A stretch of 64,000 nucleotides of DNA, from NCBI GenBank assembly GCA_000830295.1, contig CP010425.1, forward strand, positions 288,001 to 352,000, written 5' to 3'. This document shows, one piece after another, positions 42,280-48,774 of this stretch; the first letter of the stretch is position 1; each line of letters begins with the position of its first letter. A program made the position numbers and the translations under genes. The notes below the pieces were generated by a model. That model made no database searches, was not told where the DNA came from, and saw only the letters and a program-made list of their open reading frames with translations. This stretch comes from an archaeon GW2011_AR15. Lineage in GTDB: Archaea > Nanobdellota > Nanobdellia > Woesearchaeales > GW2011-AR15.

Positions 42280-42885
42280 GTGGTCAAAATGGGAAGCTTT
42301 GACCAGCTTGCAGATACATTAGAACATAGGAAAGCATATTATGGGGAGGACCAGCTTGCGCTGGTAGACCGCATCATAGCGACAACCCAGAATCATTTCA
42401 GCAGGATAAAAGACAGTGAAGAGCCGTCTTATATGGCTGCAAACCTGTATGCAGTAATGGCCCACGTCTACCTTGTTCTTGAAGGGCTGTCAGGGATAAA
42501 AACAGAATTCTCGCAATCCGTCCATCCGAGGCTGGAAAAGCTGGAAGGCCTGCTTGGGCAGTATGTGCAGGATGAAAAAAGATATAGAGAGATTTCCGGA
42601 GAAGGGCTGGACTTTACTCCTGTAGAAGACCTTGGGTCTGTGCATGTCCCGCACTGGAAAGGCTACAAGGGGCTGGAGGATGAAAAAAAGGCTTTTGCGG
42701 AATATTTCTCTGATGTTTCATCCAGGGTATCATCTCTTATGAAAGAACATACATGCATAGGGGAATACCTTAGCCAGAGGAAAGAGAAGCTCTGGAATAT
42801 CGGCTATGTTATGAACAGGCTAAAAGGATTTAAAACCGATGGCCAGAAGGCCGTGCGGAGACTCGAAACAGCGCTGCAGCGCTGA
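42280..42885 (+). CDS. Hypothetical protein
   Basis: ~200-aa ORF after TATA-like TTTATATA. Confidence 0.65.
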   Translation: MVKMGSFDQLADTLEHRKAYYGEDQLALVDRIIATTQNHFSRIKDSEEPSYMAANLYAVMAHVYLVLEGLSGIKTEFSQSVHPRLEKLEGLLGQYVQDEKRYREISGEGLDFTPVEDLGSVHVPHWKGYKGLEDEKKAFAEYFSDVSSRVSSLMKEHTCIGEYLSQRKEKLWNIGYVMNRLKGFKTDGQKAVRRLETALQR

Positions 42886-42940
42886 TTTTCTTTTTATTTT
42901 TTCAGATATATTTATTAATAATAAGTTTATACCTTGCATT

Positions 42941-42973
42941 ATGAGCGCTGGTGATTCACGCTGGACTTTGTAA
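42941..42973 (+). CDS. Putative leader peptide 1, MSAGDSRWTL
   Basis: ATG ~25 nt after TATA-like TTTATTAA (leaderless geometry); shares G-x-S-R-W with peptide 2. Confidence 0.45.
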   Translation: MSAGDSRWTL

Positions 42974-43062
42974 TTTCTTGCTTAGGTTAACCTGTAATAA
43001 AGATCTGCTGTTCGGATGCTGGCGATATTGTAAAATGTATTCTGAAAAATTTAGTTGTTTTA

Positions 43063-43081
43063 TTAAGGGGCTTCCCCTTAA
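43063..43081. repeat. Perfect hairpin TTAAGGGG-CTT-CCCCTTAA
   Basis: 8-bp inverted repeat, followed by a second CCCCTT at 43085-43090. Confidence 0.75.
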
Positions 43082-43170
43082 AATCCCCTTTCAATTTAGC
43101 TTCAGCTAGGATATATTCTGTAACATATATTTCGGAAACTATATAAATAAGTTATACTTTCCCTTTCCGC

Positions 43171-43215
43171 ATGAGAAACACAAAAGGCGGTTCACGTTGG
43201 CGTTCTTTCAATTAA
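43171..43215 (+). CDS. Putative leader peptide 2, MRNTKGGSRWRSFN
   Basis: ATG ~24 nt after TATATAAA (43140-43147); single Trp codon; upstream of tRNA-Trp. Confidence 0.55.
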   Translation: MRNTKGGSRWRSFN

Positions 43216-43290
43216 GTTAGATAATATTACATTAAATTTTTCTGCGGGCTCTTGGTGGCAGCCCTGAGTTCATTGTTTTAAACCAGATAC

Positions 43291-43361
43291 GGGGCTGTAG
43301 TTTAACGGGAAAATTCTTGGCTCCAGACCAAAAGATTCAGGTTCGACTCCTGATAGCCCCA
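43291..43361 (+). tRNA. tRNA-Trp(CCA), intronless, CCA end not encoded
   Basis: Acceptor GGGGCTG/TAGCCCC, D arm GTTT/AAAT, anticodon arm CTTGG-CTCCAGA-CCAAA, T arm TCAGG-TTCGACT-CCTGA, discriminator A. Confidence 0.92.
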
Positions 43362-43383
43362 TCAAAAACCTTAGGAGGCAAAA

Positions 43384-44064
43384 ATGAAAAAACAAAATGA
43401 ACCTGAAAACGAAGATGAGATATTAAGAAGGCTTGGCCTGGATCCTGTAAAAGATTACCAGCTGATACATGACACTCTGAGCCTGTATTATGCAAAGCCA
43501 AGGCCTGAAAAAATTAGGATTATAGAGTTCCGGCCAAGTGACTTAACAGACAGGATGAAACAGGGCATCATCGATATAGGACTGGTGGCGTTCGGCCCCG
43601 GCATGACTCCTGAAGAAATTATAGAACATGTTATGCCAACTGACAGAGTCTATATGGGATTCAAAGGAACAAGGGCAATTGGATTTGCAACTGCCAATAT
43701 TCAGGAAAACGCCGTTGATTTTGTCGGCGCTGCTGTTGAACCCCAATACCAGGGGGATGGCCTTTACAATGAGTTTGTGATGAGGCGCGTCAGCCTCGCA
43801 TTCGAGCATGGCAAAAACACAGTAAAGCTGAGGACTCAGAACCCTGTTGTCTATCTCGGTGTGACAAGGTCTCTTGACAATCTTGCGGAAATAGGCGCAA
43901 TAAATAGCTACACAGAGAAAAGGGAGCATGTGAAAGGGATGTATGGCAGGATGCTGACTGAAAAAAGGCCTCTTTCAAACATCGGGGAGATTAACCGTAT
44001 CTTTGATGTTCTGGATTATGAGAAAGGAGATACGTTCTCTTTGGAATTCAGGATGGTGAGATGA
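43384..44064 (+). CDS. GNAT-fold acyltransferase-like protein
   Basis: AIGFAT, AVEPQYQGDGLY (motif A Q/RxxGxG-like), RTQNP; GGAGG SD at 43374-43378. Confidence 0.75.
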   Translation: MKKQNEPENEDEILRRLGLDPVKDYQLIHDTLSLYYAKPRPEKIRIIEFRPSDLTDRMKQGIIDIGLVAFGPGMTPEEIIEHVMPTDRVYMGFKGTRAIGFATANIQENAVDFVGAAVEPQYQGDGLYNEFVMRRVSLAFEHGKNTVKLRTQNPVVYLGVTRSLDNLAEIGAINSYTEKREHVKGMYGRMLTEKRPLSNIGEINRIFDVLDYEKGDTFSLEFRMVR

Positions 44065-44065
44065 A

Positions 44066-44773
44066 ATGAGGATCTCAAAAACCGGTTCAGGAAATCCGAA
44101 AGTTGCCTTTGTTGCCTGTGTCCATGGAGATGAAAAAATAGGTGAGAAAGCAATAGAAAAGCTGAAGAACATCCGTCTGGCAGGGGGGACTCTTTTTTTT
44201 GTCCTGGCGAATGAGAAAGCAGCGCAGGAAAACAAGAGATTCACTGAATCAGACCTTAACAGGGTGTTTCCGGGCAATCCGGAGGGAGATCATGAGGAAA
44301 AGCTTGCGCATCAACTACTGCATGAGCTAAGGCAAGCGGATGTTGTGATAGATATACATTCAACAGAAGCTGACACAGAGGATTTCATAATTCTCACAAA
44401 AAAAGAGCAATTCAGAATTGCTGAAAAAGTTCCAATTGAGAAATGTGTATTCATGGAAAAGTCTATTGCCAAAGGAAAGGCATTGATTGATCATGTAAAT
44501 CTCGGGATTTCCATTGAGTTCAATAAAGATAGGGGAGATGTAAGCGGAATCCTGAGACAGATTCTCATCAATCTCGGCATGGTTAAGGGAAGAAAAAGGA
44601 TTGCCAGTCAGGTGGGCTACAGTGTCTACGGCATCATTGAAAAAAAAGATTATAGCGGCCTGCTTGTCAATTTCAGGGAAACAGAAATCAACGGGGAATT
44701 GTTTTTTCCCCTTTTTTATGGCTCAAAAAATTATGAAAATGTTGCCTGCCTGAAAGCAAGGAGGGTGAGATGA
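44066..44773 (+). CDS. Succinylglutamate desuccinylase/aspartoacylase family (M14-like) deacylase
   Basis: HGDE, ANEKA, RF..DLNRVFPG, IDIHS. Confidence 0.9.
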   Translation: MRISKTGSGNPKVAFVACVHGDEKIGEKAIEKLKNIRLAGGTLFFVLANEKAAQENKRFTESDLNRVFPGNPEGDHEEKLAHQLLHELRQADVVIDIHSTEADTEDFIILTKKEQFRIAEKVPIEKCVFMEKSIAKGKALIDHVNLGISIEFNKDRGDVSGILRQILINLGMVKGRKRIASQVGYSVYGIIEKKDYSGLLVNFRETEINGELFFPLFYGSKNYENVACLKARRVR

Positions 44774-45318
44774 TTAATGCTTCACTGCCTGCTGTAAAAA
44801 ACCTGGATATGCTCCGGAATATTGTAGCTTCAGGCCTTGGGCTCTTGCTCTCATTTTTCATATTCAGGGAGCATTTTGTAATCGTGCTTTCCATACTTGT
44901 CTCTATCCTTGTGATGCTTCACAAGAGATACATCGGCATTGTGCTGGGGATAGATGTCTGCATGGTGTTTGTTATGCTTTCAGCTTCAAGATACGGCGCA
45001 TTTGCAGGCGCAGCTATAGGCGGAATATCATTTCTTGGAGGGATGCTTGCCTCCCTGGAATTCAGCAAAAGCCCGATGGTGACTTTCTACGGCACGTTTT
45101 TTTATATCATCCTTGGGCTGGCTTATTCCCTGATGCCAACCGGCATAATATATGCCCTGCCTCTGCTTCATATCCTGATAGCAGGCCTTCTGTTTTCGAT
45201 TGGCGCTTTTTTTGTCGGTGCCCCTCTCCAGTTCCTGATGAAATATGCAGCAACAAATATAATCACAAATTTATTATTCATAAGAATATTCGAAAGCTTG
45301 CTGAGGCTGATGTTCTGA
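44770..45318 (+). CDS. Membrane protein, possibly ECF S-component-like
   Basis: ~6 TM segments, D..VFVMLSASRYGAFAGAAIG pattern; ATGA overlap with previous gene. Confidence 0.55.
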   Translation: MINASLPAVKNLDMLRNIVASGLGLLLSFFIFREHFVIVLSILVSILVMLHKRYIGIVLGIDVCMVFVMLSASRYGAFAGAAIGGISFLGGMLASLEFSKSPMVTFYGTFFYIILGLAYSLMPTGIIYALPLLHILIAGLLFSIGAFFVGAPLQFLMKYAATNIITNLLFIRIFESLLRLMF

Positions 45319-45962
45319 TGATAAGGCAGAAAATAAGGGAAATACTGGAAGAGATAGGGAATGCAGAGCTTGTCACAGTCACAAAATCAAGGAGCATCGA
45401 GGAAATTATAGAAGCAATCGAGGCAGGAGCAAGAATAATCGGGGAAAACAGGGTTGATGAAGCGAGAAAAAAATACGGCATGCTGAAGGATTGCCTGAAA
45501 AAATACAATGTGGGATACCATTTCATAGGCCATCTCCAGTCGAACAAGGTGAACAAGGCAGTGGGGTTTTTTGACCTGATACAGTCAGTCGATTCTGTAA
45601 AGCTGGCTGAAAAAATAAACAAACGGGCAGAAGAGCTGGAGATAGTCCAGGACATTCTCGTGCAGGTGAACATAGGGGAAGAAGAGCAGAAATACGGGGT
45701 ACCTCCTGGCGAGGTAAGCAGCTTCATAGGGAGCCTGTCCGGCCTGGGAAACATAAGGATAAAAGGGCTGATGTGCATTGCCCCTTACTCAGAAAACCCG
45801 GAAGACGCAAGGCCGTATTTCAGCAGGATGAAAAAGATATACCGCACTTTTGATTTTGAATATCTGTCAATGGGCATGACAAATGATTACCGGATAGCAC
45901 TGGAAGAAGGCTCAAATATGGTGAGAATAGGGACAGCCATCTTCGGCGAGAGAAAATATTAA
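45318..45962 (+). CDS. yggS: YggS/PLPBP pyridoxal phosphate homeostasis protein
   Basis: VTKS, GENRV, HFIGHLQSNK, LSMGMTNDY, VRIGT. Confidence 0.95.
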   Translation: MIRQKIREILEEIGNAELVTVTKSRSIEEIIEAIEAGARIIGENRVDEARKKYGMLKDCLKKYNVGYHFIGHLQSNKVNKAVGFFDLIQSVDSVKLAEKINKRAEELEIVQDILVQVNIGEEEQKYGVPPGEVSSFIGSLSGLGNIRIKGLMCIAPYSENPEDARPYFSRMKKIYRTFDFEYLSMGMTNDYRIALEEGSNMVRIGTAIFGERKY

Positions 45963-45989: not shown

Positions 45990-47120
45990 ATGACAAAAAA
46001 TGATTTCATAGTCACACCATGGAGCGTTAAGGGAGATATAGACTATGACAAATTAGTAAAGCAGTTCGGGACAAAAAAGCTGGATGAAAAACTGCTGAAA
46101 GAGCTTAAAAGCATTACAGGAGGAACCCACCATTACCTCAGAAGAAAGATATTCTACTCCCACATGTATTTAGATGAGGTATTAAAAGATTACAGGAAAG
46201 ACAATAAATTCTATCTTTACACAGGAAGGGCTCCAAGCGGGCCCGTGCATCTGGGGCACATGATCCCATGGATATTCACGAAATGGCTTCAGGACAACTT
46301 TGATGCCCATCTGCTGTTCCAGATTCCTGATGAGGAAAAATTCCTTTTCAAGAAAGACCTGACTCTGGAAGAGACAAGGAAGTGGGCTTACGACAACATA
46401 CTGGACATAATCGCTGTAGGGTTTGACCCAAAGAAAACCCACATATTTTTGGATACTGAGTACGCCGGCCATATGTATAAGCATGCTGTCCAGGTAGCCA
46501 AGAAGATAAATTTCTCAACAATAAAGTCAACATTCGGGTTTGACAACGACAAGAACATCGGGGAGATTTTCTATACTGCAATGCAGTCTGTTCCTGCAAT
46601 ACTGCCAAGCGTCCTTGAAGGAAAGAAAACCCGCGTTTTAATTCCATGCGCAATTGACCAGGATGTGCATTTCAGGCTGACAAGGGATGTCGCTGAATCA
46701 CTTGGGTATTACAAGCCCGCAACAATATTGTGCCGGTTCCTGCCCGGGCTGCAGGGTATGAGTGGAGAGGGCAAGATGTCCTCCTCCGTCGAGAGCACTG
46801 CAATATACACAACTGATGATGCCAAGACAGTAAAAAATAAAATTCTCAAGTATGCATTCTCAGGAGGCCGTGATACTTTAGAAGAGCACAGAAAGCACGG
46901 CGGCAACCCTGAAGTAGATGTTTCATACCAGTGGCTAACATTCTTTGAGGAGGACGATGCAAAGCTTGAGAAAATCTATAAAGATTACAAGTCAGGAAAG
47001 CTGCTTTCAGGAGAGCTGAAGATGATTCTTGTAGACAAGCTGAACAGTTTCCTTGCTGAGCACCAGAAGAGAAGGAAGGAAGCAGAGAAAATAATTGAGA
47101 AATTTATGCTGCGGGACTAG
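45990..47120 (+). CDS. trpS: Tryptophan--tRNA ligase (archaeal/eukaryal type)
   Basis: VTPW, YTGRAPS..HLGH, PCAIDQD, KMSSS, AFSGG. Confidence 0.97.
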   Translation: MTKNDFIVTPWSVKGDIDYDKLVKQFGTKKLDEKLLKELKSITGGTHHYLRRKIFYSHMYLDEVLKDYRKDNKFYLYTGRAPSGPVHLGHMIPWIFTKWLQDNFDAHLLFQIPDEEKFLFKKDLTLEETRKWAYDNILDIIAVGFDPKKTHIFLDTEYAGHMYKHAVQVAKKINFSTIKSTFGFDNDKNIGEIFYTAMQSVPAILPSVLEGKKTRVLIPCAIDQDVHFRLTRDVAESLGYYKPATILCRFLPGLQGMSGEGKMSSSVESTAIYTTDDAKTVKNKILKYAFSGGRDTLEEHRKHGGNPEVDVSYQWLTFFEEDDAKLEKIYKDYKSGKLLSGELKMILVDKLNSFLAEHQKRRKEAEKIIEKFMLRD

Positions 47121-48084: not shown

Positions 48085-48774
48085 TTATTGTTTCAGGCAG
48101 AAATTTACAGTGCTTTCGGCAAAAATCTTCATTGTATCATATATTTCAAGTTTATCATGCTCAGGCATCAGCAGCTGCAGGTCTGTGCACGCAAGAATCA
48201 CCGCATCTGCTTTTCCTTCAAATTTATTTATCATAGTTACAAGCTTTCTTTTATCTTTTTCAGCATGCCTGCTCAGGACAATGTTGTTTATAATCTCTCC
48301 GAGCATCGCCTGGTCTTTATCATGCGGAACAATCTGTGATATGCCTTCTTTTTTGAGGGCTGTCTCGTATAACCCGGATTTAAGGGCTGTCCTTGTTGCC
48401 AGCAGCCCAACATTACGGAACTTCTTCTCCCTGAGGAATTTTGCAGTCTCTTCCACTATGCTCAAGACCGGGATTTTGACTGCTTTCCTTATATCTTCTA
48501 TAAATATGTGAAGGGAATTGCATGGCATGACAATAAAATCCGCTCCCCCTCTCTCGAGCTTTTTCGCTCCGGCAACAAGATAGGGTATGTATCTTTCCTC
48601 TCCCTTTGAGCTCCTTATCAGGTCTTCTTCTATATCATATCTCAGGGGGACATTCCATATTAGTATCGGCGGCCGCTGCTGCTTATTCTTCTTATAGCTG
48701 CCAAACACAATCTCAAGGTAGAATTCCGCTGTTGTTTCAGGCCCTAATCCCCCTATAACACCTATTGTTTTCAT
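48085..48774 (-). CDS. Aspartate/glutamate racemase family protein
   Basis: IGVIGGLGP, PCNSLH and LACTDL (both catalytic Cys). Confidence 0.92.
   Translation of the reverse strand: MKTIGVIGGLGPETTAEFYLEIVFGSYKKNKQQRPPILIWNVPLRYDIEEDLIRSSKGEERYIPYLVAGAKKLERGGADFIVMPCNSLHIFIEDIRKAVKIPVLSIVEETAKFLREKKFRNVGLLATRTALKSGLYETALKKEGISQIVPHDKDQAMLGEIINNIVLSRHAEKDKRKLVTMINKFEGKADAVILACTDLQLLMPEHDKLEIYDTMKIFAESTVNFCLKQ

Follow-up and report, generated by a model that had tools for sequence, protein, structure and literature searches.

A tryptophan-codon leader with an embedded tRNA-Trp gene at the head of an archaeal operon: a candidate translational sensor of tRNA-Trp charging

The sensing of amino acids by ribosomes that translate leader peptides is a classic of bacterial gene control. 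At the trpL attenuator of Escherichia coli a short open reading frame (ORF) with Trp codons heads the tryptophan operon, and the ribosome translating it senses charged tRNA-Trp; in the tnaC-tnaA system of the same organism the TnaC peptide senses free tryptophan and blocks Rho, the ribosome arrested beside the stop codon masking the adjacent RNA. The T-box riboswitch likewise senses tRNA charging, and controls aminoacyl-tRNA synthetase genes. Here we describe a leader in a 64,000-nucleotide (nt) stretch of the genome of the archaeon GW2011_AR15 (contig CP010425.1, positions 288,001 to 352,000; hereafter the window), in which short ORFs carrying Trp codons precede a tRNA-Trp(CCA) gene and an operon that ends with the gene for tryptophanyl-tRNA synthetase (TrpRS), and which probably serves to gauge the supply of charged tRNA-Trp by translation.

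Several related arrangements are described in the relevant sections of earlier reports. In Streptomyces, leader-peptide attenuators with classical terminators were predicted before trpS (PMC1262725), and in mycobacteria leaderless poly-Cys short ORFs act through a stalled ribosome that opens a duplex masking the next gene's ribosome-binding site (10.1101/834739). Operons of the form tRNA-Trp(A73)-ORF1-TrpRS-A occur in bacteria of the Candidate Phyla Radiation (CPR) and in DPANN archaea, and control by tryptophan availability was suggested by the authors (PMC5370408). Our full-text literature search found no archaeal leader-peptide amino-acid sensor and no tRNA embedded in one, and as far as we could find a cognate tRNA gene inside a sensing leader is undescribed.

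A preliminary description of the window had proposed a Trp leader and a co-transcribed tRNA-Trp, gated by alternative RNA helices, ahead of a GNAT gene. All of the features it listed (TATA box, ORF, hairpin, tRNA, GGAGG, ATG and a 9-pair helix) are present exactly where it had placed them (Table 1), and its interpretation is right in outline, that is, in the Trp leader and the co-transcribed tRNA, but wrong on the core switch and the target gene.

Because the TATA box of the leader promoter starts so shortly before the ATG of short ORF 1 (Table 1), the transcript should be leaderless. The single TGG of a 14-codon ORF is not above chance alone, and the evidence beyond chance comes from relatives (G000 denotes the window's genome, other G numbers its relatives, and L numbers loci fetched from these genomes). 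Short ORF 1 belongs to a conserved type of leader ORF with the motif (G/S)(D/G)-C-(R/P)-W, its homologues being short ORFs in G015, G008, G094, G190, G041, G157, G409 and G003. Across the nine loci with the motif the third codon positions vary (CGT/CGC/CGG, TGC/TGT) and the TGG is invariant; a T-rich block, TTTTTCTTAGAT, lies downstream of the first, predicted leaderless ORF in the motif-bearing loci.

Relatives were collected by DNA searches and by covariance-model searches with a model (R1) built from five tRNA-Trp genes. We use the term class B for loci with a leader-type, promoter-less, intronless tRNA-Trp(CCA) gene, of which there are 12, each in its own genome, from 9 genera and 6 families of one Woesearchaeota-like order. 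The first searches gave G003, G004 and G009, and a search of 151 genomes of the order, from which the 30 best loci were fetched, gave G094, G041 and G157; G015 and G008 bring the members in the family, together with G000, G003, G004 and G009, to 6 of its 20 genomes, and G409 came from a search of 151 genomes of the phylum. The remaining members, G190 and G412, came from a search of 401 genomes for the pattern TTGG-N3-TAR-N15-36-tRNA 5' end and were excluded from enrichment counts, the feature counted being present in them by construction. The pattern itself was not enriched in the 401 genomes (17 genomes matched, against about 19 matches for a reversed-pattern control), and therefore only matches at tRNA-Trp genes count; a match before a tRNA-Pro in G093 looks like chance. 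None of the eight loci fetched from other orders of the class belonged to class B. As controls we used all 47 other fetched tRNA-Trp loci, with rows for tRNA-Pro, tRNA-Arg and tRNA-Gly dropped and the loci of family f21 set apart; the loci of G130, G139 and G150 were discarded, and these genomes are counted only among the genomes searched.

Class-B loci share a well-defined anatomy. A TATA-like 8-mer (at least 7 of 8 positions) begins 30-34 nt before the leader ATG in 10/10 loci, a spacing such as would be expected for a leaderless transcript. The leader closes with what we call the Trp-stop feature, a Trp codon 0-2 codons before a stop ending 10-45 nt before the tRNA; the distance from leader stop to tRNA is 23 nt in the window and 15-35 nt in relatives. 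All nine class-B loci that were identified through tRNA similarity show the feature, which in shuffles arises with a frequency of 0.024-0.175 per locus (mean 0.088), and so does G409; this makes 10/10 class-B loci found without regard to it, as compared with 1 of the 47 control tRNA-Trp loci (1/22, 0/19 and 0/6). Among the last five residues of the 12 proximal ORFs, 18 of 60 are Trp, the peptides being otherwise dissimilar.

The tRNA, for its part, lacks the promoter that tRNA-Trp genes ordinarily have: a TATA box 18-48 nt before the tRNA was found at 43 of the 47 controls, two of the four exceptions directly adjoining a preceding tRNA gene, and at none of the 12 class-B loci. A Shine-Dalgarno (SD) site and start codon follow within 70 nt of the tRNA in every class-B locus (12/12, compared with 5/47 controls), and 2/11 class-B loci and 9/22 controls have five or more consecutive T in the first 30 nt beyond the tRNA. 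Taken together, the leader TATA box, the Trp-stop feature, the missing tRNA promoter, the SD site and start codon, and the conservation of the tRNA lead us to infer that the leader promoter also drives the tRNA and that a single RNA carries the short ORFs, the tRNA and the operon behind it. The conserved anatomy thus agrees with the preliminary description in its proposal of a leader ORF with a Trp codon, of a tRNA-Trp that sits without a promoter within an mRNA leader, and of transcription of that tRNA together with the next gene.

Three further arrangements of Trp codons around tRNA-Trp genes came to light. The sole control with a Trp-stop, L034 in G044, has a long ORF that ends with the word TGTTGGCGATAG, 42-51 nt ahead of its tRNA-Trp; it has a TATA box and no SD site after the tRNA, and could be a relic or chance. 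A variant in family f21 (L029 in G039 and L216 in G235) has a long protein ORF ending in a Trp-stop 15 and 8 nt, respectively, before the tRNA-Trp, which is followed by an SD site and a radical-SAM-like gene. In G041, G157 and G409 (L031, L036 and L206) the tRNA is followed first by a third short ORF, of 22-36 codons and with an SD site, in which Trp again stands near the end (-AWRFS, -PWRYR, -CRWRFS...), so that Trp-codon ORFs lie on either side of the tRNA.

The leader-type gene is maintained as a tRNA. When 11 homologues are aligned, 96% of the cells are paired and 14 of 18 pairs have changed on both sides, a value not reached in any of 500 shuffles, and these compensatory changes point to selection on the leader-type tRNA-Trp as a tRNA. 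The window's genome is a single contig of 1,157,790 bp (42.5% G+C) in which ARAGORN makes 39 tRNA calls, most with introns. A housekeeping tRNA-Trp, the existence of which the preliminary description had raised, is indeed present outside the window at genome positions 580535-580665, its anticodon loop being interrupted by 59 inserted nt (44.8 bits with the Rfam tRNA model); ARAGORN calls it Arg(CCT), and with an intron at the canonical position its anticodon loop reads CU-CCA-G. It carries the word GCTCCAGTCATGGAGCGATGAG, which is the signature of those intron-bearing genes in relatives that ARAGORN does call as tRNA-Trp(CCA), and the intronless tRNA-Trp of the window is therefore a second copy. 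The intron-type signature occurs once elsewhere in 8 of the 10 genomes checked that bear the leader-type tRNA; the two in which it did not turn up are G009 (88% complete) and G039.

Some peculiarities of these and other tRNA genes may be recorded here. The intron of the housekeeping tRNA-Trp (locus L026, 336-464) contains the box C/D-like words GATGAG ... GATGAC, which recur, in the ARAGORN output, in the introns of other G000 tRNAs (Leu-CAA, Cys and one with a CAT anticodon). In G412 the leader-type tRNA-Trp (L191:90-210) is enlarged in the T-loop region by some 47 inserted nt; the gene escaped ARAGORN, and model R1 scores it at 60 bits. No His leader matching the Trp leader was found at the two tRNA-His genes of G000, the second of which (GTG; C1:680166-680340, outside the window) is A+T-rich, with a direct repeat of its 3' end about 75 nt downstream that resembles the attachment site of an integrated element.

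Downstream of the tRNA the window has a tightly packed operon in the order GNAT-AstE-membrane-YggS-TrpRS, and its TrpRS is the sole one in G000, with one strong match. Nine of the 12 class-B loci (G000, G003, G004, G008, G015, G094, G190, G412 and G409) have TrpRS further downstream in the same orientation, and G039 has it downstream as well; in G009 the contig ends too soon to show it. The genes between tRNA and trpS vary among class-B loci; a YggS-type gene precedes trpS also in G003, G004 and G008. A single strong TrpRS match was obtained in each of the five genomes searched, namely the class-B genomes G000, G003, G004 and G094 and the f21 genome G039.

Genes of tryptophan synthesis occur in three of the 12 class-B operons. 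In G004 the tRNA is followed by trpE (Chorismate_bind and Anth_synt_I_N), further trp genes assigned from ORF order, trpB (PALP), YggS and TrpRS, so that trpE to trpA are represented; in G015 a trpB-like PALP gene comes first, and in G190 trpE and a GATase gene (trpG). A tblastn search of G000 with the seven trp proteins of G004 gave no match; in G000 the device would govern charging capacity and not synthesis. The predicted cargo is thus charging capacity, in the form of tRNA-Trp and TrpRS, and in relatives also tryptophan synthesis. The GNAT gene, which had been taken as the target, does encode a GNAT fold (Atlas features 0.94; structure TM 0.67 to GNAT clusters), but as a conserved partner it fails: a protein query found it in 0/40 relatives, the cargo that is conserved being TrpRS and the trp-synthesis genes, which lie further along that operon.

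In light of this anatomy we think it probable that the window contains the head of a tryptophan operon whose leader gauges the supply of charged tRNA-Trp by translation, and in our reading such a sensor would control tRNA-Trp, TrpRS and the trp genes. Transcription from the TATA box at 43140 would give a leaderless RNA, on which ribosomes would translate the short ORF or ORFs, with their Trp codons just ahead of the stop, upstream of the promoter-less tRNA-Trp. Were charged tRNA-Trp scarce, a ribosome would stall at the UGG beside the stop and cover the short U-rich or pyrimidine-rich spacer and, in the window, the anti-acceptor segment too; transcription, or survival of the RNA, would then extend into the tRNA and the operon, the tRNA could fold, and RNase P and tRNase Z would free the tRNA and, beside it, an mRNA whose short 5' end bears the SD site. 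Were Trp-tRNA plentiful, the ribosome would terminate and depart, and output would fall. The machinery that a stalled ribosome would block is conjecture, and might be an intrinsic T-run signal, a cleavage or termination factor (for example the archaeal aCPSF1/FttA), an exonuclease, or misfolding of the tRNA. Stalling fits the geometry that is conserved, which consists of UGG, stop, short pyrimidine-rich spacer and tRNA.

Several observations weigh against this interpretation. In the window itself short ORF 1 stops 75 nt before the tRNA, and the frame that contains TGG TGG beside the tRNA has no ATG, GTG or TTG. No conserved terminator/antiterminator pair was found among the class-B loci, and the T-runs between leader and tRNA are short and variable. 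No TrpRS was found within about 8 kb downstream in G041 and G157. The counts overstate independence, since the class-B loci are related (9 genera, 6 families). The device is also patchy: at the 80 TrpRS loci that most resemble the query, neither an upstream tRNA-Trp nor the leader was found (flanks up to 6 kb, some shorter), and the leader is accordingly not a general feature of trpS; a regex scan of the same 80 loci for two leader motifs gave four matches, none with a TATA box or a fitting context. Finally, the organism is uncultured, and the sequencing runs listed with the stretch comprise 20 rows, all DNA from groundwater and soil metagenomes, with no RNA run among them. In three of the 80 TrpRS loci, from other DPANN metagenome-assembled genomes (L156, L164 and L165), a tRNA-Trp lies about 40 nt downstream of trpS, another kind of linkage.

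The preliminary description had located the switch in the tRNA itself: an anti-acceptor helix, formed between a leader segment and the 5' acceptor strand, and the cloverleaf would be mutually exclusive, and translation of the leader would decide whether the tRNA folds and is excised. The helix does exist in the window, where it is present in both the minimum free energy (MFE) and the centroid folds of 43168-43390 (223 nt); a duplex energy as favourable as its -15.5 kcal/mol arose in 11 of 1000 shuffles when the 60 bases upstream were permuted (0.016 of 500 in another shuffle run), and the helix lowers the predicted acceptor-stem probability in G000 from 1.00 to 0.12, as against at least 0.93 in 7/7 control tRNA-Trp genes. 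A like-placed leader segment, at or just after the stop, also beats shuffles in G009, G041 and G409 (p 0.011-0.039 with G000 included), where it co-varies with the acceptor (GGGGC with GCCCC; GGAGGC with GUCUCC).

However, no such pairing is found in the other 8 of the 12 class-B loci (p 0.24-0.95), among them the congeners G003 and G004. Predicted with the native leader in place, the acceptor stem has a probability of 0.00 in G409, 0.47 in G041 and 0.61 in G009 and G015, but 0.96-0.99 in G003, G004, G008, G094 and G190, and when compared with shuffled leaders the effect reaches 0.05 or below in only 2 of 11 loci. The leader hairpin, the other element of the proposed switch, is of ordinary stability (z 0.51; 134 of 200 shuffles reach it) and is not conserved among relatives, and the whole leader and tRNA fold no better than chance (z +1.63; 193 of 200 shuffles fold at least as well). 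The UGGUGG of its loop, pointed out earlier as complementary to CCA, makes better sense as a pair of Trp codons in frame (43253-43258) ahead of a stop. Because the pairing is absent from 8 of 12 loci we regard the anti-acceptor helix, on the predicted folds, as a real accessory in some lineages, that of the window included, and not as the conserved core; that it is the core mechanism seems to us possible but unlikely.

A different role for the two Trp codons follows if the second reading frame, which is +1 relative to ORF 1, is entered by recoding. A hungry UGG in the leaderless ORF 1 would provoke a +1 shift (UGG-N read as GGN) into the overlapping long frame, which would carry the ribosome across the T-rich stretch to a second Trp checkpoint beside the tRNA. 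In 8/8 loci the next Trp-stop does lie in the +1 frame, open 26-40 codons back into ORF 1, and with G409 offset by hand the count becomes 9/9; the frame is preserved between the congeners G094 and G190 despite a 12-nt difference in spacing; and in the window and G015 the long frame has, by eye, no ATG, GTG or TTG at the homologous place. On the other hand, the probability of such an open frame in shuffles is only as low as 0.035-0.21 per locus, and 7 of 9 loci have, by eye, a GTG or TTG at one homologous place of the long frame, from which ordinary internal initiation may feed it. Moreover, G003 (with its proximal ORF) and G004 manage with one ORF, and the codons preceding the UGG (CGN, CCN, GCG) are not slippery. 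Recoding is, in our judgement, quite unlikely. We give a slender chance to the complete two-checkpoint device, in which scarcity of charged tRNA-Trp would cause the +1 shift at the UGG of ORF 1 and bring the ribosome to the second UGG beside the stop, uncovering the 5' acceptor strand of the cis-encoded tRNA-Trp; if it were true, translation of Trp codons would decide both the maturation of the tRNA that reads those codons and the expression of its synthetase.

Given that the tRNA bears the archaeal TrpRS identity set (G1-C72, A73, CCA), that it lies 11-28 nt before the SD site in 10/12 loci, and that TrpRS is encoded in the same operon in 9/12, autoregulation by TrpRS was also considered. The synthetase would bind the unprocessed leader tRNA-Trp and so hide the downstream SD site, in the manner of ThrRS on the thrS operator, the Trp ORFs being secondary. 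This proposal, which leaves the Trp-stop feature, the predicted leaderless ORFs and the conservation of frame unexplained, and which sits poorly with trpS being the first gene after the tRNA only in G412, we find very doubtful. It is highly improbable that the conserved TTGG(C/T)G...TAR words serve as an operator for a protein, or as a motif in the RNA that contacts, for example, the CCA anticodon or the 3' end of tRNA-Trp, with the ORFs incidental. In favour of this, blocks of nucleotides such as TGTTGGCG(N)TAG do reappear in different families, and the word UGGUG of genus g1 is, by eye, complementary to the mature 3' end CACCA. Against it, TGG, the frame and the distance to the stop are kept, whereas the kind of stop (TAA, TAG or TGA) and the codon that separates it from Trp differ between loci; the UGGC or UGGA of other genera mismatches the discriminator A73; the TATA-to-ATG spacing fits leaderless translation in 10/10 loci; and Rfam, searched at E up to 1, gave neither a T-box nor a Trp_leader match.

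The features of the leader and operon in the window are collected in Table 1. An Rfam cmscan of 42500-44000 at E up to 1 returned the tRNA only, with no T-box and no Trp_leader match; a scan of the window for sigma-70 promoters and terminators was set aside as irrelevant to an archaeal host.

Table 1. Features of the Trp leader, its tRNA and the downstream operon (positions are those of the window)
Feature	Positions	Strand	Remarks
TATA box of leader promoter, TATATAAA	43140-43147	+	Read directly; starts 31 nt before ATG of short ORF 1
Short ORF 1, 14 codons	43171-43215	+	ATG 43171, TAA 43213-43215, single TGG 43198-43200; from sequence and translation
Second frame, +1 relative to ORF 1, 30 codons, ends Trp-Trp-Gln-Pro-stop	43175-43267	+	TGG TGG 43253-43258, TGA 43265-43267, 23 nt before tRNA
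Leader hairpin GGGCT/AGCCC, loop CTTGGTGGC	43246-43264	+	Arms 43246-43250 and 43260-43264; z 0.51
Anti-acceptor segment	43258-43266	+	Could pair with 43290-43298 (5' acceptor strand of tRNA); 9 pairs, two G-U
Second tRNA-Trp(CCA), intronless, without own promoter	43291-43361	+	G1-C72, A73, no encoded CCA; ARAGORN; Rfam tRNA 59.6 bits, E 5.4e-12
SD site GGAGG and ATG of first operon gene	43374-43386	+	GGAGG 43374-43378, ATG 43384, 22 nt after tRNA; from sequence
GNAT-fold acetyltransferase-like protein, 226 residues	43384-44064	+	Specific to G000; weak RimI match, E 4e-4
AstE/AspA-family deacylase-like protein	44066-44773	+	PF24827, E 3.7e-18; shares 42% identity with one of the G409 operon genes
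Membrane protein-like ORF, no family match	44770-45318	+	
YggS-type pyridoxal phosphate-binding protein	45318-45962	+	PF01168
Tryptophan--tRNA ligase (TrpRS), 376 residues, last gene of operon	45990-47120	+	NF008927, 529 bits, above cut-off

The operons hold other features that we note in passing. The TrpRS proteins of G003, G008 and G015 (L057:2394-4184, L190:1451-3253 and L189:2348-4117) have an N-terminal extension of about 225 residues with a B3_4-like domain; G004, too, has an open frame of 603 residues, and the TrpRS of the window is without the extension. A radical-SAM/SPASM-like protein of about 290 residues, with no Pfam match, is encoded between tRNA and trpS in G003, G039 and G190 (L057:722-1597, L059:624-1481 and, on the minus strand, L192:5252-6130), the copies being 42-46% identical to one another. 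An Asp/Glu racemase gene lies near the operon of the window (48085-48774, minus strand), and a racemase belongs to the same operon in G409 and G041, joined in G409 by a deacylase. The GNAT protein, the AstE/AspA-type deacylase, YggS and the racemase might be amino-acid salvage enzymes, which is a guess only.

A translational sensor of tRNA-Trp charging at this locus would be a compact and testable case of an archaeal leader peptide in genome-reduced DPANN cells, and the element, at about 220 nt, is of a size that would allow its use in reporters in a tractable archaeon. It bears on the coupling of transcription, translation and RNA processing in archaea, on how auxotrophic symbionts handle scarce tryptophan, given that no tryptophan-synthesis genes were found in the window's genome, and on why some genomes retain a second, intron-free tRNA copy.

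How far does the locus resemble the systems already described? Like the trpL leader of E. coli (Rfam Trp_leader) it has a short Trp-codon ORF at the head of a tryptophan operon with the ribosome as putative sensor, and a short ORF in the leader, Trp codons at a fixed place and downstream genes of the Trp pathway were all found. Conserved alternative hairpins of the trpL type were not (hairpin z 0.51; alternative helix in 4/12 loci; no Trp_leader match), and unlike trpL the system is archaeal, with a putatively leaderless, TATA-driven ORF, no conserved terminator or antiterminator hairpins, no Rfam match, Trp codons 0-2 codons from the stop, and a presumably functional cognate tRNA gene between leader and operon. 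The T-box riboswitch shares with it the sensing of tRNA charging and an aminoacyl-tRNA synthetase gene as target; here, by contrast, there is no specifier/T-box architecture and no Rfam match, the tRNA is encoded in cis, and the UGG triplets form in-frame codons of ORFs.

As described in the passages of PMC1262725 that deal with them, the Streptomyces trpS attenuators likewise have a leader peptide before the TrpRS gene, but they are bacterial, have predicted classical terminators and contain no tRNA in the leader. The mycobacterial poly-Cys ORFs, in the account given in the corresponding part of 10.1101/834739, are similar in being a leaderless, sensory first cistron at which stalling at codons for the sensed amino acid alters expression of the operon; they differ in their duplex, of which no conserved counterpart was found here, and in having no intervening tRNA. 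The operons of PMC5370408 also have a tRNA-Trp gene together with a TrpRS gene in groundwater DPANN and CPR organisms, whereas the TrpRS-A of the passages concerned is additional to a canonical TrpRS and the linked TrpRS is here the sole one in 5/5 genomes searched; those passages on the TrpRS-A operons mention no leader ORFs.

For the geometry of the proposed mechanism we prefer the analogy with tnaC-tnaA, in which a ribosome at the end of the leader ORF, beside the stop codon, shields the RNA from the termination machinery, with the difference that the signal here would be a lack of Trp-tRNA and not the presence of free tryptophan.

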